From the NCBI GenBank assembly GCA_038746285.1, contig JBCDKT010000013.1, forward strand, positions 13,126-77,125: a stretch of DNA of 64,000 nt. The letters are read 5' to 3'. Source of the DNA: Bacteroidota bacterium. GTDB taxonomy: Bacteria; Bacteroidota; Rhodothermia; Rhodothermales; JANQRZ01. Under the pieces are notes generated by a model. The model searched no databases. It was given only the letters and a program-made list of their open reading frames with translations, and had not been told where the DNA came from. Both the position numbers and the translations under genes were made by a program. Of the stretch, positions 44,308-55,460 are shown in pieces; position 1 is the stretch's first letter; each line of letters begins with the position of its first letter.

Positions 44308-44322
44308 AGGGGTTGATGGAAT

Positions 44323-44415
44323 GGGCGAGTGGGCGGGGTGGAGAGTGGGCGGAGACGAGTGAAGGCGGTCAGGTCGGGTTCTCCCTCGCCCTTTCTCCCA
44401 TTCGCCCTTTCCGCC
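44323..44415. repeat. 8-mer inverted-array element A ('empty', conserved core)
   Basis: gggcgagt gggcgggg tggagagt gggcggag - core gcggtcaggtcgg - tcgccc tttctccc attcgccc tttccgcc. Confidence 0.9.
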
Positions 44416-45468
44416 TCACCGTTCGACGCGGCCGGAGCCGGAGCCGGTGGCCAGCTTATCGACCTCGGCGGCCGAGGTGAGGTTGGCGTCGCCGGGGATG
44501 GTTTGCTTGAGCGCACTCGCGGCGACGGCGAAGTTCAGCGCATCCTCGGCGTCGTCTTTCGTGAGCAGACCATGGATGAGGCCGGCGGCGAAGCTGTCGC
44601 CCCCGCCGACGCGGTCGACGAGGCGTACGTCGTAGCGGCGACTCCGGGTCGGCGCGGCGAGCGGCGCGGCCGTCCCGGCCCCGCCGAGGAGGAGGGCGCT
44701 CCAGCCGTTGTCGCTCGCCGAGTGAGACTCGCGGAGCGTGATCGCGACGGCGTCGAAGCCGTACTCGGCCTTCAGCTTCTCGGCGAGGCGGGCGTACCCG
44801 GCCGCGTCGAGCTCGGCCTCTTCGGCGGCGGCGGCGCCCGAGCCTTCGGTCGTCACGCCGAGCGAGCGGTCGGCGTCCTCCTCGTTGGCGATGCACACGT
44901 CGACGTACGCCATGAGGGATCGCATCGCGGCGCGGGCCTCGTCGACGGTCCACAGCTTCGCCCGGTAGTTGAGGTCGCACGAGACGGTCACGCCCGCCGT
45001 CTTCGCCGCGCGGCACGCCGCCTCCACCGCCCGGTGCGCCGACGGGCCGAGCGCGGGCGTGATGCCCGTCCAGTGGAACCAATCGGCCCCGTCGAAGACT
45101 CGGGCCCAATCGACTTCATCGGGCTGCATCTCGCTCACGGCCGAGTGCGCCCGGTCGTAGATCACCTTCGAGGGCCGCTGGCTCGCGCCGGTTTCGAGGA
45201 AGTAGATCCCGACCCGCTCGCCGCCGCGCACGACGAAGCGGGTGTCGACGCCGTAGCGCCGGAGGTGGCCCACGGCCGCCTGCCCGACCTCGTGCGCGGG
45301 CAGCTTCGAGACGAACCGGGCGTCGTGCCCGAAGTGGGCGAGCGAGATGGCGACGTTGGCCTCGCCGCCCCCGTAGGTCACGTCGAAGCGGTCGGTCTGC
45401 GTGAAGCGGGAGAAGCCCGGCGCCGAGAGCCGGAGCATGATCTCGCCGAAGGTGACGACGGTGGACAT
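44416..45468 (-). CDS. kdgK: 2-keto-3-deoxygluconate kinase
   Basis: TFGEIMLRL, GGGEANVA, DLNYR.KLW, DRVGGGDSF. Confidence 0.95.
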   Translation of the reverse strand: MSTVVTFGEIMLRLSAPGFSRFTQTDRFDVTYGGGEANVAISLAHFGHDARFVSKLPAHEVGQAAVGHLRRYGVDTRFVVRGGERVGIYFLETGASQRPSKVIYDRAHSAVSEMQPDEVDWARVFDGADWFHWTGITPALGPSAHRAVEAACRAAKTAGVTVSCDLNYRAKLWTVDEARAAMRSLMAYVDVCIANEEDADRSLGVTTEGSGAAAAEEAELDAAGYARLAEKLKAEYGFDAVAITLRESHSASDNGWSALLLGGAGTAAPLAAPTRSRRYDVRLVDRVGGGDSFAAGLIHGLLTKDDAEDALNFAVAASALKQTIPGDANLTSAAEVDKLATGSGSGRVER

Positions 45469-45483
45469 GGGTCAGTTGGAATA

Positions 45484-45513
45484 GGGCGTGGAGGGAATGG
45501 AAGGAAAAGAGGG
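45484..45513 (+). repeat. 9-mer family arm N3
   Basis: gggcgtgga gggaatgga aggaaaaga ggg, abutting the GH28 stop. Confidence 0.8.
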
Positions 45514-46845
45514 TTATCCGTCGCTGAGCGTGATGCCTTCGAATCGGACGTTCGTGACGGCTTCGAGGTGGAGCGGGCGGCGACCGGGGCCGGTGATGGT
45601 CACGTCGCGGAGCGTCAACCCGTCAATGTGCCCGAGCGTGAGGTGCGCCTCAACCGGTGCGAGGTCTACCGAGCCGGGCGTCGGGTCGAGGCCTCGCTTG
45701 CCGCCGGGCTTGCGGAGGCCGCCGAGCGGGACCGGATCGGCAATGCGGAGCGTGACGCCGTCGAGCGTGAGGTCCTCAATCGGCGCGTCGGCGCGGCCGG
45801 CGATGAGGACGTTGCCGCGCGTCGCCGCGTCGAGGCCGCGCACGGTGAAACGGCGAACGACCCCGAGTGGGCTGGCCTCGTCGCGCCGGTCGAGGTCGAG
45901 GTAGAGCGGGTACTCGGTGCGGTGGCGCGTCGCCTCGCCGGAGAAGCTGACGTTCTCGACGCGGACATCTTCCACCGTCCCGCCGTCCTTCATGAAGACG
46001 GCCACGCCGTAGCGCGAGTCGCGGATGGCGACGTTCTGGATGAGGACGTGCCGCATCGCCTCCTCGGTCCGCGTCCCGAACTTGATCGCCGCGTCGTCGG
46101 ACGAGAGCACCGAGTTTGTGACGGTGACGTGCTCGACCGGGCGCCCGCTGCCCGCCTTGAAGACGATGGCGTCGTCGCCAGTGTCGATGTGGACGTTTGC
46201 GATGCGGACGTTGCGCGCCCCGCGCAGCCCGATGCCGTCCGTGTTGCGGCTTCGCGGGTCGTTGAGGATGCGGACGCCGTCGATGGTCGCGTCCTCGACG
46301 CGCTGGAGGTTGAGCGTCCAACCCGTGGCGTCGCGGAGGGTCACGTCGCGGACCGTGAGGCGCTCGACATCCTGGAAGAGGGTCCAGAACATCGGCCGGC
46401 CCTCGGTCTCCTCGCCGGTCTCGAGGTCGTAGGCGAAGTCCGGCCCACGCCCGTCGAGCATGCCGGTCCCGATGAGGGCCACGTCCTCGGCGTCGCAGGC
46501 GGCGAGGAGTGCCCGACGGCGTCCGGGGTTGTCGCCCGCGAGTTCGGGCAGGAGCGGATAGTCGGCGAGGTTCGTCGAGCCGCGGAGGACGGCCCCGGCG
46601 TCGAGGTGGAGCCGGACGCGGCTGCGGAGGCGGAGCGTGCCCGTGTCGAAGGTCCCCGCCGGAACCCAGACCGTCCCGCCCCCGCGCCCGGCGCAGGCGT
46701 CGATGGCGGCCTGCACGGCTCCGGTGTCGAGCCGCTCGTCGCCCGCCACCGCGCCGTGGTCGGTCACGAGGCACATCGGCTGGCCCACCGCCGGCACCGC
46801 CCACACCACCAGCATACCGAACAGGCAGAGCAGCACTCTCCCCAT
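45514..46845 (-). CDS. Secreted GH28 (polygalacturonase-family) glycoside hydrolase
   Basis: Likely start ATG 46845 (MGRVLLCLFGMLVVWAVPAVG); AVQAAIDAC..GGGTVWVPAG, NTDGI, TGDDAI; canonical HG and RIK motifs are not evident. Confidence 0.8.
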   Translation of the reverse strand: MGRVLLCLFGMLVVWAVPAVGQPMCLVTDHGAVAGDERLDTGAVQAAIDACAGRGGGTVWVPAGTFDTGTLRLRSRVRLHLDAGAVLRGSTNLADYPLLPELAGDNPGRRRALLAACDAEDVALIGTGMLDGRGPDFAYDLETGEETEGRPMFWTLFQDVERLTVRDVTLRDATGWTLNLQRVEDATIDGVRILNDPRSRNTDGIGLRGARNVRIANVHIDTGDDAIVFKAGSGRPVEHVTVTNSVLSSDDAAIKFGTRTEEAMRHVLIQNVAIRDSRYGVAVFMKDGGTVEDVRVENVSFSGEATRHRTEYPLYLDLDRRDEASPLGVVRRFTVRGLDAATRGNVLIAGRADAPIEDLTLDGVTLRIADPVPLGGLRKPGGKRGLDPTPGSVDLAPVEAHLTLGHIDGLTLRDVTITGPGRRPLHLEAVTNVRFEGITLSDG

Positions 46846-46875
46846 TCCCTCCCCACCCTCCTTTCCCTCCACGCC
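46836..46875 (-). repeat. 9-mer family arm N4 (inverted relative to N3)
   Basis: ctctccccattccctccccaccctcctttccctccacgcc; reverse complement ggcgtgga gggaaagga gggtgggga gggaatggg gagag. Confidence 0.85.
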
Positions 46876-46877
46876 TG

Positions 46878-47564
46878 TCATTGCTCGCCCCCGCGCACGG
46901 CGTCGATGGAGGCGCGGAGCCGGGCGGCGTTGCGCGTCAGCGCGCGCCAGTCCTCGTTGGCCACGGCGTGCGCGTCCACGAGCGCGCTGCCGACCCCGAC
47001 GGCGACGGCCCCGGCGCGGAGCCAGTCGCCCGCATTATCGAGCGAGACGCCGCCGGTGGGCATCAGGCGGAGGTGCGGCATCGGGGCGAGGACGCCCTTG
47101 AAGAACGGGATGCCGAGGACGCCCGCCGGGAAGACCTTCACCACGTCGGCCCCGGCGTCGGTGGCGGCGAGGATCTCGGTCGGGGTGAAGCAGCCGGGCA
47201 TGGCAGCGGCCCCGGCGGCGTGCGCGGCCTCGATGACGGCAGGCCGGAAGACGGGGCTGACGACGTAGCGCGCCCCGGCCTCGACGGCGGCCTCGGCCGT
47301 CGCGGCGTCGAGCACGCTCCCGGCCCCGACGAGGACCGAGCCGCGCATCTCGCGGCACACGGCGCGGATGGCGTCGAGCGCGTTCGGCACGGTCATCGTC
47401 ACCTCGAAGGTGACCACGCCGCCCACCGCGAGGGCCTTCGCGGTCTCGACGAGCCGGTCGGGCCGGTCGGTGCGGACGACGGCCACGGCCCCGTCGCGCG
47501 CGATCCAGTCGACGACGCCCTCGCGGGTGTCGGTGGCGGGTCGGTCGATCAGCAGCGGATTCAT
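46878..47564 (-). CDS. eda: KDPG/KHG aldolase
   Basis: FEVTMTVP, GAGSVLD, VSP, PGCFTPTE, KVFP, PTGGV. Confidence 0.95.
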   Translation of the reverse strand: MNPLLIDRPATDTREGVVDWIARDGAVAVVRTDRPDRLVETAKALAVGGVVTFEVTMTVPNALDAIRAVCREMRGSVLVGAGSVLDAATAEAAVEAGARYVVSPVFRPAVIEAAHAAGAAAMPGCFTPTEILAATDAGADVVKVFPAGVLGIPFFKGVLAPMPHLRLMPTGGVSLDNAGDWLRAGAVAVGVGSALVDAHAVANEDWRALTRNAARLRASIDAVRGGEQ

Positions 47565-48688
47565 CGATTTTCAGGTGAAGTGATAGACACTAGATGGTTG
47601 TTTTCTGCTCGCTGCCCGCTGCCTTCTGCTCGCTGACTCACGGCGGTCCAGAGGCCGAGGAGGTAGGCCGCGCCGAGCGCCCGGTCGTACAGCCCGTAGC
47701 CGGGGCGCACGCCCTCCTGCCCGACTTCGGACCAGACCATCCGCCCGTGGTCGGGGCGGGCGGGGCCGCGGAAGCCAGTCTCGGCGAGGGCGCGGAGGAC
47801 GGCGGCGAAGTCCACGGCTCCGTCGGGGTGCGCGGTCTCGGCGAAGTCGTGCGCGCCGTCCGCGTGGGCCGCGCTGTGGCGGACGTTGCGGAGATGCACG
47901 AAGTGGGTGCGCCCGGCGAGCGAGTGAACCGTCGCAGGCAGCAGCGTGGCCTCGGAGGGATCGGCCCCGAGCGAGCCGGTGCAGAGGCAGACGCCGTTGG
48001 CGGGACTGTCCACGAGGCCGCAGACGCGCCGCAGTGCCGCCCCGCTCGTCACGATGCGCGGCAGCCCGAAGACCGGCCACGGCGGGTCGTCCGGGTGGAT
48101 CGCAAGACGGACACCCGCAGCTTCAGCGACGGGCACGACGGCGTCGAGAAAGTAGGCGAGGTGGTCCCACAGCCGCTCGGCGTCGATCTCGGCGTAGGCC
48201 GCCCGCAGCGCCGCGAGGTCGTCCGGGTCGAACGCCGTCATCCACCCCGGCAGCCCGCCCGACGCGAGCTTGGCCTCGATCTCGGGCAGGTCGGCGTGGC
48301 GGTACGCGAGCGTCGTCGAGCCGTCGGGGAGGCGGAGCGCGAGGTCGGTCCGCGTCCAGTCGAAGACGGGCATGAAGTTGTAGCACACCGTCCCGATACC
48401 CTCCGCGCCGACCGCGTCGAGGCTACGGCAGAAGGCGTCGATAGCGGTGTCGCGGCCGTCCGCCCCGAGCTTGACCGACTCGGCGACGGGGATGCTCTCG
48501 ACCACGCTCCAGCGCAGCCCCGCCACCTCGATCTGCTCGCGGTGCGCAGCCACGGCGTCGCGCGGCCACGCCTCGCCCGGCGGCACGGCGTGCAGCGCGC
48601 TTACGATCCCCTCGACGCCCGGAATCTGCCGGACGTGGTCGAGGCGGACGGGGTCGTCCGGTCCGTACCAGCGGAAGGTGAGAGTCAT
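47561..48688 (-). CDS. uxuA: Mannonate dehydratase
   Basis: TFRWYGPDDPV, WSVVES, CYNFMPVFDWTRT, HPDDPP, RPDHG, PGYGLYDRALG. Confidence 0.95.
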   Translation of the reverse strand: MTLTFRWYGPDDPVRLDHVRQIPGVEGIVSALHAVPPGEAWPRDAVAAHREQIEVAGLRWSVVESIPVAESVKLGADGRDTAIDAFCRSLDAVGAEGIGTVCYNFMPVFDWTRTDLALRLPDGSTTLAYRHADLPEIEAKLASGGLPGWMTAFDPDDLAALRAAYAEIDAERLWDHLAYFLDAVVPVAEAAGVRLAIHPDDPPWPVFGLPRIVTSGAALRRVCGLVDSPANGVCLCTGSLGADPSEATLLPATVHSLAGRTHFVHLRNVRHSAAHADGAHDFAETAHPDGAVDFAAVLRALAETGFRGPARPDHGRMVWSEVGQEGVRPGYGLYDRALGAAYLLGLWTAVSQRAEGSGQRAENNHLVSITSPENR

Positions 48689-48694
48689 AGGGTT

Positions 48695-48801
48695 GGGAAT
48701 GGGAGAGCGGGCGAGTGGGAGAATGGGCGGGGTGGCGAATGGGTGATGGGAGAACGGCTACTCCTCTTCGCCCTCTCGCCCTCTCGCCCTCTCGCCCTTC
48801 C
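48695..48801. repeat. 8-mer inverted-array element B (C-rich arm lies in the uxaB 3' end)
   Basis: gggagagc gggcgagt gggagaat gggcgggg tggcgaat ... cta ... ttcgccc (tctcgccc)x3. Confidence 0.9.
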
Positions 48802-50302
48802 GTCTGTTCGGCAGAGCATCGAGGAGCATCGGAACGCCTCGGTCGAGGCCCTGCTCGGTGAAGCGGGCGACGGTGTCGGCGAAGGCGGAGCCGACGCCGG
48901 GGAGGTCGGTCAGGTTGTCGCTCCAGAGCGTGCGGTCGGCGAGGACCGAGTGGGCGACGACGGCAGCGGCATCGGGGCGGCGGCGCCACGACTCGCGGAC
49001 GGCATCGGCGCGGTCGTCGGTGAGGAGGTCGGTCGCGGCGAAGACGAGGGGCGAGTCGGACTCCATGCCCGTCGCGGCGCGGTGCAGGAGCAGGAACGCG
49101 GCGAAGCCGAGTGCAACGGCCTCGGGCACGGTACCGGTCTCGGCAAGGGCGCGGACGGCAGGCACGGCGCGGACGTCGAGCTTCATCGTCTGCTGGAGCG
49201 TGATCGAGACGAGGTCGTGCCGGATGAACGGGTTGGCGAAGCGCTCGAGCACGGCGCGGGCGAACGGCGCGGCGATCAACGGGTCGTGCCCCGCCGCTTC
49301 CAGCTCGCGCTCGGTCGCGGGGACGAGCTCGCCGAAGAGCAGGCGGCGGACGAAGGCACCGACGCGCTCGCCTTCGACGGCCTCGCGGACGGTCGCGCAC
49401 CCGCAGCCGAGGGCGACCGGGACGAGGAGCGTGTGGGCCGCGTTGAGCAGCCGCACTTTGCGCAGCCGGTACGGCTCGACGCTCGGCACGACGATCACGC
49501 CTGGCTCGGCTCCATCCGCGAACGGCAGGCGCTCGGCGAGGTCGTCGTTCCCTTCGATGGCCCACAGCCGGTAGACCTCGGCGGCGGTGAGCAGGTCGTC
49601 GCGGTACCCGAGGCTTTCTTGCAACGCCTCGGCGTCCTCCGGCTCGCCGGGGACGATCCGGTCGACGAGGGTGTTGGTGAACGTGCAGTCGTTGCGGACG
49701 AAGGCGGCGAAAGTCTCGCCCCACCCGGCACGCTCACCCCAGCGGAGGACGAGGCTGCAAAGCCGCTCGCCGTTGCCCTCGACGAGCTCCGTCGGGAGCA
49801 CGACGACGCCCGCACCGTCGCCGAGTGCCTCCTGCCGCGCCCGCAGCCACGCCGCGAGCTTGGCCGGGAACGAGCGCGGCGGGGCCGCCTCGGGGTCGTC
49901 CTCTTCGTCCCACGTCAGCCCCACCTCGGTCGTGTTCGAGACGACGAGGCCCACGTTTTCGTCGCGGGCGAGCGCGAGCACGTCGTCCCAGTCGTCCTGC
50001 GCTGAGAGTGCCCGCGCCACCGCGCCGACGACGCGGGTTCGCTCGACCGCCTCGCCGTCTTCGATGCCTCGCACGACGAGCGTGTACAGCCCGTCCTGCT
50101 CGTTGAACGCGACCCCACGCCCGCTCCCGGTCTGGCTCACGACAACGGCGCGGCCGTCCCACGACCCGGCACGATTGGCGAGGTCGAAGGCGTCGTCCAC
50201 CAAGCCGCGGAGCAGCGCGCCCGTGCCGAACTGCACCACGCGGACGGGATGCTCGGGCGGTGCGTCAGGCGCGTGGTGGCGGTCGAGTCGAGGAAGGGGC
50301 AT
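48758..50302 (-). CDS. uxaB: Tagaturonate reductase (altronate oxidoreductase)
   Basis: VVQFGTGALLRG, SNTTE.G, SFPAKL, PTEL..NG, NTLVDRIVPG, KVRLLNAAH; next to uxaA. Confidence 0.88.
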   Translation of the reverse strand: MPLPRLDRHHAPDAPPEHPVRVVQFGTGALLRGLVDDAFDLANRAGSWDGRAVVVSQTGSGRGVAFNEQDGLYTLVVRGIEDGEAVERTRVVGAVARALSAQDDWDDVLALARDENVGLVVSNTTEVGLTWDEEDDPEAAPPRSFPAKLAAWLRARQEALGDGAGVVVLPTELVEGNGERLCSLVLRWGERAGWGETFAAFVRNDCTFTNTLVDRIVPGEPEDAEALQESLGYRDDLLTAAEVYRLWAIEGNDDLAERLPFADGAEPGVIVVPSVEPYRLRKVRLLNAAHTLLVPVALGCGCATVREAVEGERVGAFVRRLLFGELVPATERELEAAGHDPLIAAPFARAVLERFANPFIRHDLVSITLQQTMKLDVRAVPAVRALAETGTVPEAVALGFAAFLLLHRAATGMESDSPLVFAATDLLTDDRADAVRESWRRRPDAAAVVAHSVLADRTLWSDNLTDLPGVGSAFADTVARFTEQGLDRGVPMLLDALPNRRKGERARGREGEEE

Positions 50303-50315
50303 GGAGTGGTCGGTT

Positions 50316-50425
50316 GGGAATGGGAAAAGTGGGCGGGGTGGCGAGTGGGCGGGGTGGCGAACGAAAGCGGTCAGGTCAAATTCGCCCTTTCGCCCTCTCC
50401 CCCATTCGCCCTTTCTCTCGCCCCC
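50316..50425. repeat. 8-mer inverted-array element C ('empty', conserved core)
   Basis: gggcgggg tggcgagt gggcgggg tggcg - aacgaaagcggtcaggtcaa - attcgccc tttcgccc tctcccc attcgccc. Confidence 0.9.
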
Positions 50426-51952
50426 TCACAACGTCACCCCCGCTTTCCAGATCGCGATCTCGCGGTAGTCGTTGGTCTCGTTGCGCGTCCGGCGGCGGCC
50501 CGAGGCAATGGCGAGGAGGTCGGCCACGAAGCGGTCGGCGAGCCCGTCGAGGTCGGCCTCGCCGGTGAGGAGGGGGCCGGCGCTGAAGTCGATCCAGTGC
50601 GGCTTACGCGCGGCGACGGCGTCGTTGGTGGCGATCTTGACGGTCGGGGCAGGGAAGCCGAGGGGCGTACCGCGGCCCGTCGTGAAGAGGACGAGCGCCG
50701 CGCCCGCCGCGGTCAGCGCGGTCGAGGAGACGCCGTCGTTGCCGGGGCTTTCGAGGAGGGCGAGGCCGGGCCGGAAGCCGTCGTGCCCCGGCACACTCGC
50801 GCGCCCGGTGTAGCGGACGACCTCGGCCACGGGGGCCCGCCCGCCCTTCTGGATCGCGCCGAGCGACTTCTCCTCCAGCGTCGTCAGCCCGCCGTCTTTG
50901 TTGCCGGGCGAGGGGTTCTCGTAGACCGGCTGGTTGTGGTCGAGGAAGTAGCGCTTGAAGTCGTTCACGAGGTCGACCGTCCGCTCGAACACGCCCCGGT
51001 CAGTGGCGCGTTGCATCAGCACGCGCTCGGCCCCGAACATCTCGGGGACCTCGGTGAGAATCCCGCGCCCGCCCCACGCCGCGACGCGGTCGGCGACGCG
51101 CCCGACGAGCGGGTTGGCCGTCACGCCCGAGAATCCGTCCGAGCCGCCGCACTTGAACCCGAGCACGAGGTCCGCCGCCGAGACCGTCTCCCGTTGGTCC
51201 GACCGCATGAGGCCCACGATCTCCTCGGCGAGCGTCGTCCCCTCCTCCACCTCGTCGAGGACGTGCTGCGCGGCGAAGCCCCGGACGCGTCCGTCGGTCC
51301 GGTCGGCCTCCTGGAGGAAGGCGTCGAGCTGGTTGTTCTCGCAGCCGAGGCCGAGCACGAGGACGCCACCCGCGTTCGGGTGCGCCGCGAGGCGGGCGAG
51401 GAGCTGGCGCGTGTGCCCGAGGTCGTCGCCGAGTTGGGAGCAGCCGTAAGGGTGGGCGAAGGCGTGGGCGCCGTCGATCACGCCCTCGCCTTCGGGACCG
51501 AACCGGGCGTCGACGGCGCGGGCGATCCGCTCGGCGGCGCGGTTGACGCAGCCGACGGTGTTGAGCACCCACAGCTCGTTGCGCGTCCCGACGCGCCCGT
51601 CCGGGCGGCGGTAGCCCGCCCACGTCGGCACGTCGCGCGCGGCGGGCCGGTCGGTGTCGACAGGATCGTAGCTGTATTCGTCCTCGCCGCTCAGCCTGGT
51701 GGCGAGGTTATGGCTGTGAACCCACTCGCCCGGCGCGATGGCCTCAGTCGCGCGGCCAATCGGGAAGCCGTATTTGACCACGGCGTCGCCCTCGGCGTGT
51801 GGGACGAGCGCGATTTTGTGCCCGGCCGGCACGTCCGCGCGCAGCGTCACGCCAAGCACCTCGGCTCCTGCTTCCAGCGCCTCGACGGCGACGGCGACGG
51901 TGTCGGTCTCGTGGATACGGAGCGCGCGCGGCGCGGTGAGCACGTCCGGCAT
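50426..51952 (-). CDS. uxaA: Altronate dehydratase
   Basis: SAF domain (GHKIAL..VKYG.PIG), GTRNE, HPYGCSQLGDD, KCGGSDGFSG.TANP, NPSPGNK.GGLTTLEEKSLG. Confidence 0.95.
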   Translation of the reverse strand: MPDVLTAPRALRIHETDTVAVAVEALEAGAEVLGVTLRADVPAGHKIALVPHAEGDAVVKYGFPIGRATEAIAPGEWVHSHNLATRLSGEDEYSYDPVDTDRPAARDVPTWAGYRRPDGRVGTRNELWVLNTVGCVNRAAERIARAVDARFGPEGEGVIDGAHAFAHPYGCSQLGDDLGHTRQLLARLAAHPNAGGVLVLGLGCENNQLDAFLQEADRTDGRVRGFAAQHVLDEVEEGTTLAEEIVGLMRSDQRETVSAADLVLGFKCGGSDGFSGVTANPLVGRVADRVAAWGGRGILTEVPEMFGAERVLMQRATDRGVFERTVDLVNDFKRYFLDHNQPVYENPSPGNKDGGLTTLEEKSLGAIQKGGRAPVAEVVRYTGRASVPGHDGFRPGLALLESPGNDGVSSTALTAAGAALVLFTTGRGTPLGFPAPTVKIATNDAVAARKPHWIDFSAGPLLTGEADLDGLADRFVADLLAIASGRRRTRNETNDYREIAIWKAGVTL

Positions 51953-51965
51953 GGCTATGGGGTGA

Positions 51966-52479
51966 GGGCGAGTGGGCGAAAGGGCGAGTGGGCGTTAGAG
52001 GTTGGATTCTCCGTTTGCGTTGTATGGTGTGGGGTCTTCGCGGACGAGAGACGAGGGGCCGCACCACTGTTCCGGGTAGCGCATCATCTTGACGAGACCG
52101 GCGGCGAGGTGGTCGCACAAATCGACGAGCACATCGTGCCTCGCAGCGTTGAGGTAGCCACACTCGAGAGCTACATCGAGCCATACGCTCGTCTCTTCCG
52201 CTTCGCCGAGGGCGTCGGTGAGCTTGCTGACGAAATGTTTGGGGTAGCGACGTTTCGCCCATGCCTCGGCTAGGTTCGCCGAGACGCTGCGTGACGAGCG
52301 CCGCGCTTGATCGGTGAGGGCATATTGCTCCTCCTTCGGCCACGCCTTCGACGCGGCGAAGACCGCCTTCCGAAGCTCAACGGATCGTTCGTAAACGCGC
52401 AGTTCTTTGACTCGCATGGTCTGTCTCATCAGGTTGTCAGGTTCTCTTTCCGCCCCTCCGCCCATTCGCCCTCTCGCCC
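51966..52479 (-). mobile_element. Putative four-helix-bundle cassette bounded by inverted 8-bp arrays (element D, 'filled')
   Basis: Left arm gggcgagt gggcgaaa gggcgagt gggcg (51966-94) abuts the stop; right arm tttccgccc ctccgccc attcgccc tctcgccc (52447-79); enclosed gene is visibly lower in GC. Confidence 0.6.
51995..52429 (-). CDS. Four helix bundle protein (23S rRNA-IVP / Avd-like family)
   Basis: Start ATG 52429 or 52417; L.VY..S...., P.EEQYALTDQ.RRSSRSV.AN.AEAW.KRRY..HFVSKLTDA.GEA.ET.VWL..A.ECGY. Confidence 0.92.
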   Translation of the reverse strand: MRQTMRVKELRVYERSVELRKAVFAASKAWPKEEQYALTDQARRSSRSVSANLAEAWAKRRYPKHFVSKLTDALGEAEETSVWLDVALECGYLNAARHDVLVDLCDHLAAGLVKMMRYPEQWCGPSSLVREDPTPYNANGESNL

Positions 52480-52481
52480 GT

Positions 52482-53987
52482 TCATCCTCCCAGCCTCGGT
52501 AGCGTCGTGCCCGCGAGGAGCGGGACGAACACGACGGCGAGGAGCGTGACGAGAAGCGCGAAGGCGAGGTTCAGCCAGACACCGGCGCGGGCCATCTGCC
52601 CGACGGTCAGGTAGCCGCTCCCGTAGACGATCGCGTTGGGCGGCGTGGCGACGGGGAGCATGAACGCGCAGCTTGCGGCGACGGTCGCCGGGACGAGGAG
52701 GAGGAGCGGCGCGGTGCCGGTCGAGACGGCGAGGGCTGCGAGAACCGGGAGGAAAGCGGCAGCGGTCGCCGTGTTGCTCGTCAGTTCGGTCAGGAAGACG
52801 ATCACCACGACGACGATCCCGACGAGGACAAACGTCGGGAGCGCGCCGAAGGCGGCGAGGGCTTCGCCGATCCACGAGGCGAGGCCGGTACTGGAAATAG
52901 CCGAAGCGAGCGAGAGGCCGCCGCCGAAGAGGAGCAGGATGCCCCACGGGAGCGTCTTCGCCGTCGCCCAGTCGAGCGCCCGCACCGCGTGCCCGCCAGC
53001 GGTCCGCACCGGGAGCGCGAAGAGCGCGAGCGCGCCGAGCATCGCCAGGCCGGGATCGGAGAGGCCAGGCACGACGGCTTCGAGGAGGGGACGCGTGATC
53101 CACAGCAGCGCCACAATCCCGAAGACGGCCCCGACCGTCCACTCGCCCCGGCTGACGGGTCCGAGCGCCGCCAGCCGCTCGCGGATAAACGCCTGCCCGC
53201 CCGGAATCTCCGGCAGCCGCACCGGGAAGACGACACGCACGAGGAGCGTGTACGCGAGCGCGATTCCAATCACCACCAGCGGCAGCCCGACCACGAGCCA
53301 CCCCGCGAACGACACCTCGACGCCGTAGGTCTCCTCGACGAAGCCTGCGAAGAACGCGTTCGTCGGCGTCCCGATGAGCGTCCCGAGGCCGCCGACCGAG
53401 CAGGCGTAGGCGACCCCGAGCATCAGCACGAGCGCGAACCGTCGGTCCTCGGCCTCGGTCCCGACCTCGTCGCGGTGGGCGAGTTCAGCCACCGAGAGCG
53501 CAATCGGGAGCATCATCACAGCCGTCGCGGTGTTCGAGATGCCCATCGAGAGCGCGGCGGCGGCGAGCATCAACCCGAGCACGATCCGCCGCGGCCGCGT
53601 CCCGACGCGCGCCACGACCGAGAGCGCGAGCCGCCGGTGGAGGTCCCACCGCTCCATCCCCTTCGCCAGGAGGAACCCGCCGAGGAAGAGGAAGATGATC
53701 GGGCTCGCGTAGGGGGCCGCCGCGTCCCGGATGCCGGCCACGCCCAGGAGCGGGAACGCCGCGAGCGGGACGAGCGAGGTCGCCGCAATCGGCAGGGCCT
53801 CGGTCATCCACCACACCGCCATCAGCACGGCGACCGCCGCCGCGCCCCATCCGGCCTCGCCCAATCCCTCCGGCGCGGGCAGCGCGAGCAGCACGCCGAA
53901 CGCCGCCAGCCCCGCGACGAGGCCGACGCGCTGCGCCGCCGTCGTCCCGGTCTCGGGCGGAGGGGAAACGGTGGGGGTCGGGGTCAT
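52482..53987 (-). CDS. DASS/SLC13 sodium-coupled di-/tricarboxylate symporter
   Basis: Start ATG 53987; WWMTEALP, SMGISNTAT..MMLP, GTLIGTP, ELTSNTA, AFMLPVATPPNA. Confidence 0.92.
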   Translation of the reverse strand: MTPTPTVSPPPETGTTAAQRVGLVAGLAAFGVLLALPAPEGLGEAGWGAAAVAVLMAVWWMTEALPIAATSLVPLAAFPLLGVAGIRDAAAPYASPIIFLFLGGFLLAKGMERWDLHRRLALSVVARVGTRPRRIVLGLMLAAAALSMGISNTATAVMMLPIALSVAELAHRDEVGTEAEDRRFALVLMLGVAYACSVGGLGTLIGTPTNAFFAGFVEETYGVEVSFAGWLVVGLPLVVIGIALAYTLLVRVVFPVRLPEIPGGQAFIRERLAALGPVSRGEWTVGAVFGIVALLWITRPLLEAVVPGLSDPGLAMLGALALFALPVRTAGGHAVRALDWATAKTLPWGILLLFGGGLSLASAISSTGLASWIGEALAAFGALPTFVLVGIVVVVIVFLTELTSNTATAAAFLPVLAALAVSTGTAPLLLLVPATVAASCAFMLPVATPPNAIVYGSGYLTVGQMARAGVWLNLAFALLVTLLAVVFVPLLAGTTLPRLGG

Positions 53988-54003
53988 GGGTTTGGTTTTG
54001 CGT

Positions 54004-54090
54004 GGGTGAGGGGGCGAGAGGGCGGGGTGGCGAGCGAAAGTGGTCAGGTCAGATTCGCCCTTTCGCCCTTTCTCCCATTCGCCCTCTCTC
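54004..54090. repeat. 8-mer inverted-array element E ('empty', conserved core)
   Basis: gggcgaga gggcgggg tggcg - agcgaaagtggtcaggtcag - attcgccc tttcgccc tttctccc attcgccc tctctc. Confidence 0.9.
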
Positions 54091-54091
54091 A

Positions 54092-55336
54092 TCACTGTCG
54101 GTCGGCGTAGGCTTTGGCGGCGGCTTCGATCGCGCCCTCCTTCGGGACGAGGCCGAGGCCGGGCGCTTCGGGCACGGCGATCATCCCGTTCTCGGGCAGC
54201 ACCTGGGTCTCGAAGAGGTCCCACAGTTCGGGAGCCTTGTCCGGGCCGGGGTGCTCCTGCGGGCGGTCGGCGCGGAGGACCGAGGCGACGTAGTGGAGGT
54301 GCGCCGCCGTGCCGAGCGTCGGGCGCGTCGAGTGGACCGCGATCGGGAGGTCGAAGGCGGAGCAGAGCGCGGCGATGTGGCGGCCCTCGGTCAGCCCGCC
54401 CGCCCGGATCAGGTCGGGGTTGACGACGTCGGGGCGGCCCTGCACGATGAGGTCGCGGAACTGCCAGCGCGTGTACTCGTGCTCGCCGGCGGCGACCTGG
54501 ATGCCGTCGAGCGCGTCCGAGACCTCGGCGTGGTCGGCGTAGTTGGTGTAGCCGACCGGCTCCTCGAAGACCGAGACGTTGTACTCCTCGTAGAGCCGCC
54601 GCCCGACCTCAATCGCGCGCGCGGCCGAGTACCCGTTGTTGGCGTCGACGTAGAGCGGAAACTCGTCGCCGATCTCGGAGCGGATCGCGGCGACGACCTC
54701 GAACGTCGGGTCGTCCACGGGGTCGACGTTGGTCTGCCGGATGTCCATCCGCGCCTTGACAGCCTTGAACCCGATCTCCACGAACCCGGCGGCGATGCGG
54801 GCCATGTCGGCGGGCGTCCGGTCGCCGCCGTCGCGGGAGAACGAGCCGTAGACGGGGATCTCTTTGCGGTACGCCCCGCCGATGAGCTGGTAGCAGGGCC
54901 GCCCGAGCACCTTGCCGCGCGCGTCCCACAGCGCGAGGTCGATGCCGGAGATCGCGCTCGTGATGAGGCCGCCGCGGCCCATGTCGTCCGAGCGGAAGTA
55001 GAGGTCGGTGAAGAGGGGGTCGGCGTCGAAGAGGTCACGGCCCTCGACCTGCCGGTCGATGCGGTCGATGAGGGCGTCGACGATGCCCGGCCCGGCGCCG
55101 GCGCGGTCGGCTTCACCCCAACCTGTGACGCCCGCGCTCGTGCGGACGCGCGTGAAGAGCGCCGCCCCGACGTAGAAGGCGTCCACCTCGGTGACGGTGA
55201 CCGGCGCGACGCCCCGCAGCGGCCCGTCGTAGACCGTCGGGCCCGCCGAAGGCTCGGCGGCGAAGGCGGCACTCGGCGCGGCGGCCGCGAGCGGCAGCGC
55301 GGCGGAGGACCGGAGGAAGTGGCGGCGCGAAGGCAT
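54092..55336 (-). CDS. Mandelate racemase/muconate lactonizing enzyme family dehydratase with Tat signal
   Basis: Start ATG 55336 (MPSRRHFLRSSAALPLAAAA); SGIDLALWD..GK.LG.P.YQL.GG, KARMD, VDAN, FEEP, GEHE, NPD, H. Confidence 0.88.
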   Translation of the reverse strand: MPSRRHFLRSSAALPLAAAAPSAAFAAEPSAGPTVYDGPLRGVAPVTVTEVDAFYVGAALFTRVRTSAGVTGWGEADRAGAGPGIVDALIDRIDRQVEGRDLFDADPLFTDLYFRSDDMGRGGLITSAISGIDLALWDARGKVLGRPCYQLIGGAYRKEIPVYGSFSRDGGDRTPADMARIAAGFVEIGFKAVKARMDIRQTNVDPVDDPTFEVVAAIRSEIGDEFPLYVDANNGYSAARAIEVGRRLYEEYNVSVFEEPVGYTNYADHAEVSDALDGIQVAAGEHEYTRWQFRDLIVQGRPDVVNPDLIRAGGLTEGRHIAALCSAFDLPIAVHSTRPTLGTAAHLHYVASVLRADRPQEHPGPDKAPELWDLFETQVLPENGMIAVPEAPGLGLVPKEGAIEAAAKAYADRQ

Positions 55337-55351
55337 GGCGTCGGGTTTGTC

Positions 55352-55460
55352 GGCGAGTGGGCGGGGTGGCGAAAGGGCGGAGGGGCGAGTGGGCGGGGGG
55401 CAAACGAAAGCGGTCAGGTCGGATTCTCCCATTCGCCCTCTCCCCCATTCGCCCATTCTC
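55352..55460. repeat. 8-mer inverted-array element F ('empty', conserved core)
   Basis: gggcgggg tggcgaaa gggcggag gggcgagt gggcgggg - aacgaaagcggtcaggtcgg - attctccc attcgccc tctccccc attcgccc attctc. Confidence 0.9.

Follow-up and report, generated by a model that had tools for sequence, protein, structure and literature searches.

Gene-less fold-back repeats in a hexuronate operon of a Rhodothermales bacterium and their probable kinship with an IVP-encoding element

Related elements and the hexuronate locus

Intervening sequences of bacterial 23S rRNA are hairpins whose stem encloses either an open reading frame (ORF) of the S23p/PF05635 family, as in Coxiella and Leptospira, or a short loop, and which are cut out by RNase III (PMC4990558). 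The questions of the function and the mobility of the protein family associated with these sequences have stood open since the 1990s. The present analysis concerns a set of comparable hairpins in a window of 64,000 nt (the whole stretch of DNA that was analysed, C13:13126-77125) from a bacterial draft genome of 4.07 Mb, 69% GC and 134 contigs. From ~42 kb to 59 kb of the window every gene lies on the minus strand, and the hexuronate (sugar-acid) operon found here comprises genes for GH2, PfkB, GH28, Eda, UxuA, a mannitol-DH-family protein, UxaA, the four-helix-bundle protein IVP (PF05635), DASS, an enolase-family protein and a WD40 protein. Nearly all junctions of this operon carry an element, and the seven elements are designated A to G: A, C, E and F contain no ORF and are referred to as empty, D is filled by the IVP gene, and B and G are sibling hairpins. 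Taken together, the elements are probably best explained as a local family of hairpin copies, in which D is the same kind of element carrying an IVP module and which would act as intercistronic counterparts of the rRNA intervening sequences.

As in the rRNA intervening sequences, a terminal inverted sequence forms a stem around a PF05635 gene or a short loop, the elements form part of a longer transcript, forms with and without an ORF occur side by side, and the region upstream of the ORF is variable. Unlike the rRNA insertions, the elements lie between or at the ends of protein-coding operon genes, and none is inserted in helix 25 or 45 of 23S rRNA; their arms are degenerate tandem 8-mers, and RNase III excision is a feature known from the intervening sequences. 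A long terminal stem is found, with an arm duplex of -54.5 kcal/mol in D, the best of the seven elements, and imperfect duplexes of -33 to -45 kcal/mol in the empties, while an S23p/PF05635 ORF occupies the loop of D only. Another comparison is offered by miniature inverted-repeat transposable elements (MITEs) and fold-back repeats such as Correia and ERIC, which likewise occur as short, ORF-less, intergenic and co-transcribed copies with inverted ends and a larger relative with the same ends. In contrast to MITEs, the larger relative D encodes the IVP four-helix-bundle protein and no known transposase, there is no target-site duplication at the empties, and only four copies exist, all within 11 kb. 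Terminal inverted repeats are present in a loose form, as periodic arrays that are ~70-85% complementary.

Repetitive extragenic palindromic (REP) elements and REPINs are mobilised by RAYT transposases (PMC3116915). The elements described here resemble them as intergenic hairpin-forming repeats spreading within a genome and differ from them in that their arms consist of 8-mer arrays in place of REP palindromes headed by GTAG, and in that the association is with an IVP gene rather than a RAYT gene (no search aimed at a RAYT gene was made). Cyanobacterial genomes reportedly contain both short tandemly repeated repetitive (STRR) arrays of heptamers and 21-27-nt 'small dispersed repeats', and their arrangement, a small conserved non-repetitive unit amid short tandem repeats in intergenic position, is similar to that of the ~22-nt unit at this locus. 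The phylum and the repeat units are different, however, and four local copies are found here instead of many dispersed ones; we know of no described link between the cyanobacterial small dispersed repeats and an IVP gene.

Four diverged copies of one ORF-less repeat

The four empty elements are located as follows, the arms and cores being given on the + strand.

44319-44417, unstranded: element A, PfkB/GH2 junction; G-rich arm 44319-44359, core 44360-44381, C-rich arm 44382-44417
50316-50427, unstranded: element C, UxaA/mannitol-DH-family junction; G-rich arm 50316-50361, core 50362-50383, C-rich arm 50384-50427
54000-54090, unstranded: element E, enolase-family/DASS junction; G-rich arm 54000-54034, core 54035-54056, C-rich arm 54057-54090
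55352-55460, unstranded: element F, WD40/enolase-family junction; G-rich arm 55352-55404, core 55405-55426, C-rich arm 55427-55460

An earlier note on this DNA had described a non-repetitive core common to the four empties and a single orientation for all of them. Both observations are borne out: every core string that it quoted is present in its place, the likeness lies far beyond chance, and each element reads G-rich array, 22-nt core and C-rich array on the + strand. Pairwise, the cores of C, E and F are identical at 20/22 positions and that of A agrees with the others at 17-19/22, GGTCAGGTC being unchanged in all four. Homology spans the whole elements, arms included, over ~85 aligned columns; the 16-mer GTGGGCGGGGTGGCGA is found on one side, and the opposite side has the common unit order gccctYtc / Ycccattc / gccctYtc. 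This likeness beyond the core, together with the common order of the 8-mer units, identifies A, C, E and F as copies of one element. In the direction of transcription each copy consists of a G-rich arm (GGGCGAAW-type 8-mers), a loop of ~20 nt and a C-rich arm of CGCCACCC/CGCCCACT units; in F, the end of the core and the first unit of the C-rich arm form the 14-mer AGGTCGGATTCTCC (55416-55429). The genome-wide collection and alignment of core copies that the earlier note had proposed returned only these four, with identities of 17-20/22. A blastn-short search of the whole genome gave no extra core copy, and of its 125 matches to CGAAAGCGGTCAGGTC with at most three mismatches only the four in A, C, E and F lie between arrays. 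When Joint Genome Institute (JGI) metagenomes were scanned with a 25-nt pattern, two chance matches were obtained, each lying in coding sequence and lacking arrays. Elements A, C, E and F are therefore four diverged copies of one ORF-less fold-back repeat of ~95-110 bp, restricted to the hexuronate operon, and we infer that the core is the loop of this family rather than a general recognition site.

Among the available relatives that have this operon, L075/L076 (GCA_964438105.1) is the nearest, its UxaA being 85% identical; the comparison covers one locus and one moderately distant relative. From WD40 to GH2 the genes of the relative follow one another in the same order, gaps between them range from -4 to 54 nt, and no paired arms, core or IVP gene were detected in this orthologous operon. 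At the UxaA/mannitol-DH junction the gap measures 28-31 nt in L075, L077 and L078 (30-31 nt in the more distant L077 and L078), at the enolase-family/DASS junction, the site of E, it is 17 nt in L075, and DASS and UxaA are separated by 2 nt. Alignment of the junctions with L075 places the start of A and C directly after conserved stop codons, that of PfkB in the case of A. Since the junctions of the relative are compact and devoid of paired arms, the empties are themselves derived insertions and the true naive sites are the compact junctions, which contradicts the earlier suggestion that the empties represent pre-insertion sites in the naive sense. At the WD40/enolase junction of L075 (7147-7194) a 48-nt C-rich period-8 tract, CCCGCTCGCCCTTTTACCCGCTCTCCCACCC, aligns with the C-rich arm of F, and the G-rich arm and the core are both absent from this junction; the tract represents a C-rich leader of ancestral origin or else an element that has decayed. 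The possibility that the core is a relic of the ancestral WD40 tail and stop (AACTGACC in L075) was dropped, as 8-9/12 positions match and the other three copies are left unexplained.

Selection on a cis-regulatory site, either an operator half-site or an RNA-protein site, instead of common descent might also keep a core alike at several junctions. The invariance of GGTCAGGTC in all four copies is in line with such a site, and CGAAAGCG, the distal half of the core, presumably resembles a half-site of a LacI-type operator. This explanation is nevertheless very improbable, given that homology covers whole elements with their arms, the core is not palindromic, a promoter/terminator scan revealed no such signals at the elements, and the motif is absent from the orthologous operon.

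The filled element D and its boundaries

Element D, its gene, its two boundary segments and the adjoining relic of the DASS gene have the following positions.

51959-52483, minus strand: filled element D, arms 51959-51994 and 52448-52483 around the IVP module
51995-52417, minus strand: IVP / four-helix-bundle gene, PF05635 (Pfam E = 7e-28), 140 aa from the ATG at 52417
51999-52012, unstranded: D-left, AGGTTGGATTCTCC, copying the end of the empties' core and the first C-arm unit, and encoding the last IVP codons
52436-52447, unstranded: D-right, GTCAGGT followed by TCTC(T), adjoining the C-rich arm; p about 0.03-0.08
51953-51970, minus strand: ancestral DASS 3' end and stop relic, CGCCCTCACCCCATAGCC on this strand, downstream of the cassette and directly before the uxaA ATG

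Alignment with homologues makes the ATG at 52417 the most likely start of the IVP gene, which has a GC content of 61%, the neighbouring genes having 72%. D is inserted ~21 nt upstream of the ancestral DASS stop, and the counterpart of the DASS-tail relic in L075, CCGCCCTCACTCCGTAACC, likewise lies directly before the uxaA ATG. The closest IVP homologues (C55, L001, L002, L079, L080 and L082) share at most 75% amino acid identity, and a search for a homologue above 75% was negative. Their arms and leaders are quite different from those of D, whose arms are of the local type, and the leaders are not alignable even between the closest homologues. The local-type arms would fit a module residing in a local hairpin and would equally fit fast local homogenisation. 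Past the conserved 'VRED..Y' the tail of the protein differs in every close homologue, so that the tail can be element-derived. At all eight IVP loci of this genome the gene is preceded by a purine-rich array of tandem 7-9-mers and followed by the complement of that array (the downstream arm being unclear in C20); the same arm-gene-arm layout is seen at seven Rhodothermales loci (L001-L007), and 32 of the 47 cross-phylum loci exceed all local controls. To our knowledge, IVP genes enclosed by inverted short-repeat arrays are not a published family. The unit of the flanking arrays varies by lineage and the layout is constant, with CAGTNAT heptamers in Anaerolineae, AAGCGTA heptamers in Bacteroidales and GGGACGGT octamers in Verrucomicrobiota among the loci L008-L072.

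The probable kinship between D and the empties shows at the two inner boundaries of the cassette. On the minus strand the IVP gene ends in ...GGAGAATCCAACCTCTAA, which reads AGGTTGGATTCTCC on the + strand and is identical at 13/14 positions to the 14-mer of F and at 12/14 to that of A. Across 8.15 Mb (both strands), the 14-mer of F with at most one mismatch matches only F, A and D-left, and the Smith-Waterman score of 23 obtained for D-left is reached by 0/1936 array-adjacent flanks, 0/184 loop regions and 0.075% of random 40-mers. D-left is a much stronger signal than the match in the IVP leader at D-right, to which the earlier note had drawn attention. This leader match is real as sequence where the note had placed it, but by itself it does not exceed chance; gtcaggttc (52436-52444) is separated by 3 nt from the C-rich arm (52448-52483) that follows it and, with respect to the minus-strand IVP gene, lies upstream of the start. 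The match amounts to a 7-mer, ACCTGAC on the minus strand, and a 7-mer in common with any of the four cores is expected in 8% of random genomic 35-mers. Once the last arm unit is counted in, D-right attains a best Smith-Waterman score of 17, a value that 3.3% of random 40-mers, 2.7% of the 1936 array-adjacent flanks and 4.9% of the 184 loop regions also reach; hairpin loops unrelated to the family give equal or higher scores with the IVP leader, and the leader match is accordingly borderline. Read on the minus strand, the leader itself (52418-52435) is made up of a pair of 8-nt units, AACCTGAC and AACCTGAT, and the GTCAGGT match therefore falls within a small tandem duplication.

The earlier note had further read GTCAGGT as a recognition or crossover motif. 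Genome-wide the heptamer occurs 212 and 213 times on the two strands, with ~213 occurrences expected from GC composition; beside arrays 6 sites are found against 3.5 expected, four of them belonging to the A/C/E/F family, and none of 79 other IVP genes has the motif within the 170 nt around its start. A frequency at the level of composition, the lack of array enrichment outside the family and the absence from other IVP leaders leave the proposed role unsupported. The same data bear on a broader alternative, in which the empties are non-autonomous partners of the IVP cassette and GTCAGGT is the recognition or crossover site for a transposase-less mobility driven by the four-helix-bundle protein. 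In its favour, the empties and D share arm type and neighbourhood, the offset of the motif from the C-rich arm is similar (3 nt vs 5 nt), and inverted arrays enclose the IVP genes of this genome, of the seven Rhodothermales loci and of most of the 47 cross-phylum loci. In addition to the unfavourable counts of the motif, this alternative has to contend with leaders that cannot be aligned between the closest homologues, with 401 of 516 skewed arrays that fit no IVP arm type of this genome, and with a protein family, PF05635, that has no known activity on DNA; IVP-driven mobility is thus improbable.

In the reading preferred here, D would be the same kind of element as the empties, with the IVP coding module at the boundary of loop and arm, as the two boundary matches suggest. 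The module lies between two partial copies, a good one at D-left and a degraded one at D-right (GTCAGGT, a 5-nt gap and TCTC), of a segment that is single-copy in the empties, (GTC)AGGT(C/T)GGATTCTCC; the segment proposed as duplicated in D is GTCAGGTCGGATTCTCC. To judge from these repeats, it is the gain or loss of the IVP gene that seems to set filled and empty forms apart: the module may have entered an empty element with a 14-17-bp duplication, or may have been lost from a filled one by recombination between the repeats. Entry into an empty element, possibly accompanied by the 14-17-bp duplication, is favoured over deletion because a flanking duplication must arise by insertion at some stage. 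The copies may then have spread locally as whole units, aided by their common arm repeats. Of the earlier proposal that the empties are deletion derivatives or insertion/excision sites, the kinship of filled and empty forms through the core is supported, the evidence being the D-left boundary; a derivation of the distal core half CGAAAGCG from the present IVP cassette, in which no counterpart of it exists, is not supported. The interior of D gave no match to the core other than D-left and a chance-level antisense 10-mer.

The boundary matches could also have arisen with no ancestor-descendant relation at all, the empties being a hairpin-repeat family independent of D and the matches resulting from local homogenisation by gene conversion among neighbouring arrays, or representing remnants of two separate junction elements on either side of an IVP gene already resident there. 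The arm units do form a common pool, in which cross-element complementarity is at least as high as that within elements, almost every operon junction has an element, D-left is partly an arm-type unit (ATTCTCC), and arms differ even at orthologous IVP loci (C55 vs L002). On the other hand, the universal arm-gene-arm layout would result only if precisely the C-rich arm was lost at one junction and precisely the G-rich arm at the other, AGGTTGG, the part of D-left that is not arm-like, matches the end of the core as well, and the 14-mer is confined to the A/C/E/F family and D. Such independence is regarded as rather unlikely.

Several observations weigh against D being an empty element that acquired the IVP module, or against the empties being hairpins of this kind. 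The distal core half is missing from D, and either direction, gain or loss, therefore needs an extra deletion of 11-20 nt. Compared directly with each other, D-left and D-right show weak likeness, and in 32 other IVP cassettes no comparable inner direct repeat was found, for which reason such a repeat was dropped as a general property of IVP cassettes. No target-site duplication is visible in the L075 junction alignments at A, C, E and F. As hairpins these four are poor, with z-scores of -1.3 to -2.8, the values for B and G being -4.6 and -4.7; their consensus fold, three GGGCG:CGCCC helices, contains no compensatory changes, and complementarity between the two arms of an element does not exceed that between arms of different elements. 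An origin of the arms in place by inverted duplication was rejected on this last ground.

On the transcribed strand the minimum free energies of the elements lie between -40 and -55 kcal/mol, with -40 to -52 kcal/mol for A, C, E and F, and an Rfam search of the window matched no family. Within the polycistronic mRNA the elements are predicted to form imperfect hairpins of 5-bp GGGCG:CGCCC helices separated by small internal loops. Since the layout matches that of the 23S rRNA intervening sequences, intercistronic processing or stabilisation would be expected, and the hairpins may act as sites of either activity in the manner of their rRNA counterparts.

Sibling hairpins, the array landscape and implications

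Two further hairpins of the same arm type flank or interrupt the series and differ from the A/C/E/F family in their loops.

48695-48804, unstranded: element B, sibling hairpin with a different, 8-nt loop; the stop of the upstream gene (48758-48760) lies in the loop
58555-58641, unstranded: element G, sibling hairpin with a different loop

The mannitol-DH-family ORF reads through the upstream arm of B and ends at a TAG in the loop (48758-48804), which indicates that the insertion of B replaced the original C-terminus of the gene; in the junction alignment, this upstream arm is now translated. All seven elements, A to G, were inserted at or just inside gene 3' ends of a formerly compact operon. 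A once-compact catabolic operon has thereby taken up seven elements in ~15 kb, two of the seven inside gene 3' ends, and the reading frames around all of them stay open.

Under the filter used here, the genome contains 516 short skewed tandem arrays. Among neighbouring array pairs of opposite skew, the G-rich array stands 5' of the C-rich one in 99/111, an order that reads alike on both strands, and 55 of the 68 pairs with both flanks callable lie between co-directional genes. Arrays of the GGGNG period-8 type are strongly clustered in the region of the operon (11/81 within ~21 kb), and few of 34 IVP loci from other genomes have same-type arrays nearby. The idea that each array family has one IVP paralogue is weak, considering the 401 arrays that match no IVP arm type. 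Contigs C20, C36, C37, C40, C85 and C92 end inside perfect arrays, the assembly thus being interrupted by these repeats.

The sequences enclosed by arms can be grouped into families, which makes the A/C/E/F core a small, local representative of a broader array-core-array class. A 45-nt core with ~100 copies, GTTGGCGCGGAGCGCGACGGYCTCGGTAACTTTCTCGGCTTTTCTT, holds a GCGC-NNN-GCGC mini-hairpin with a variable loop and sits between two non-complementary, often perfect arrays, such as (GGACAGA)n and (CCACTCCTC)n; examples are C2:101279-101492, C16:3308-3495, C21:12547-12710 and C39:36107-36305. Its interpretation as a promoter was dropped owing to its mixed orientation relative to neighbouring genes. 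The core2 family, GGGAACTTCTCCAGCGTCGCCTTTCAA, has four dispersed copies (C13:83957-84130, C19:20932-21070, C34:11031-11226 and C37:2388-2549) with arms of the same two types as A, C, E and F, the right arm being a perfect array, (CACTCGCC)n, with as many as 15 units; at its right end core2 reads CGCCTTTCA, which resembles CGCTTTCG of the A/C/E/F core. Pieces of the 45-nt core occur at the inner boundary of two IVP cassettes, AGGGTCTCGTTCAC in the leader at C20:33230-33300 (nominal p ~1e-3) and GAGCACGACGGTCTC in the trailer at C55:9230-9290 (nominal p ~4e-3). Given the number of comparisons, these fragments are not significant.

A general form of the proposed mechanism, in which PF05635 modules enter pre-existing ORF-less array hairpins at the loop/arm boundary and leave a 14-17-bp duplication, is a doubtful generalisation at present. 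If it were true, cassettes of the intervening-sequence type would arise when fold-back repeats are loaded with a protein module, those of rRNA would form the special case in which an rRNA helix serves as the hairpin, the gene-less hairpins that are common in many genomes would represent the unloaded form, and the fragments in the C20 leader and the C55 trailer would be further instances. For a protein family whose function and mobility have long been in question, the locus provides a series of filled, empty and naive states, namely one filled element, four gene-less siblings and an orthologous operon without any, and thereby a concrete system in which insertion, deletion and RNA processing can be tested.

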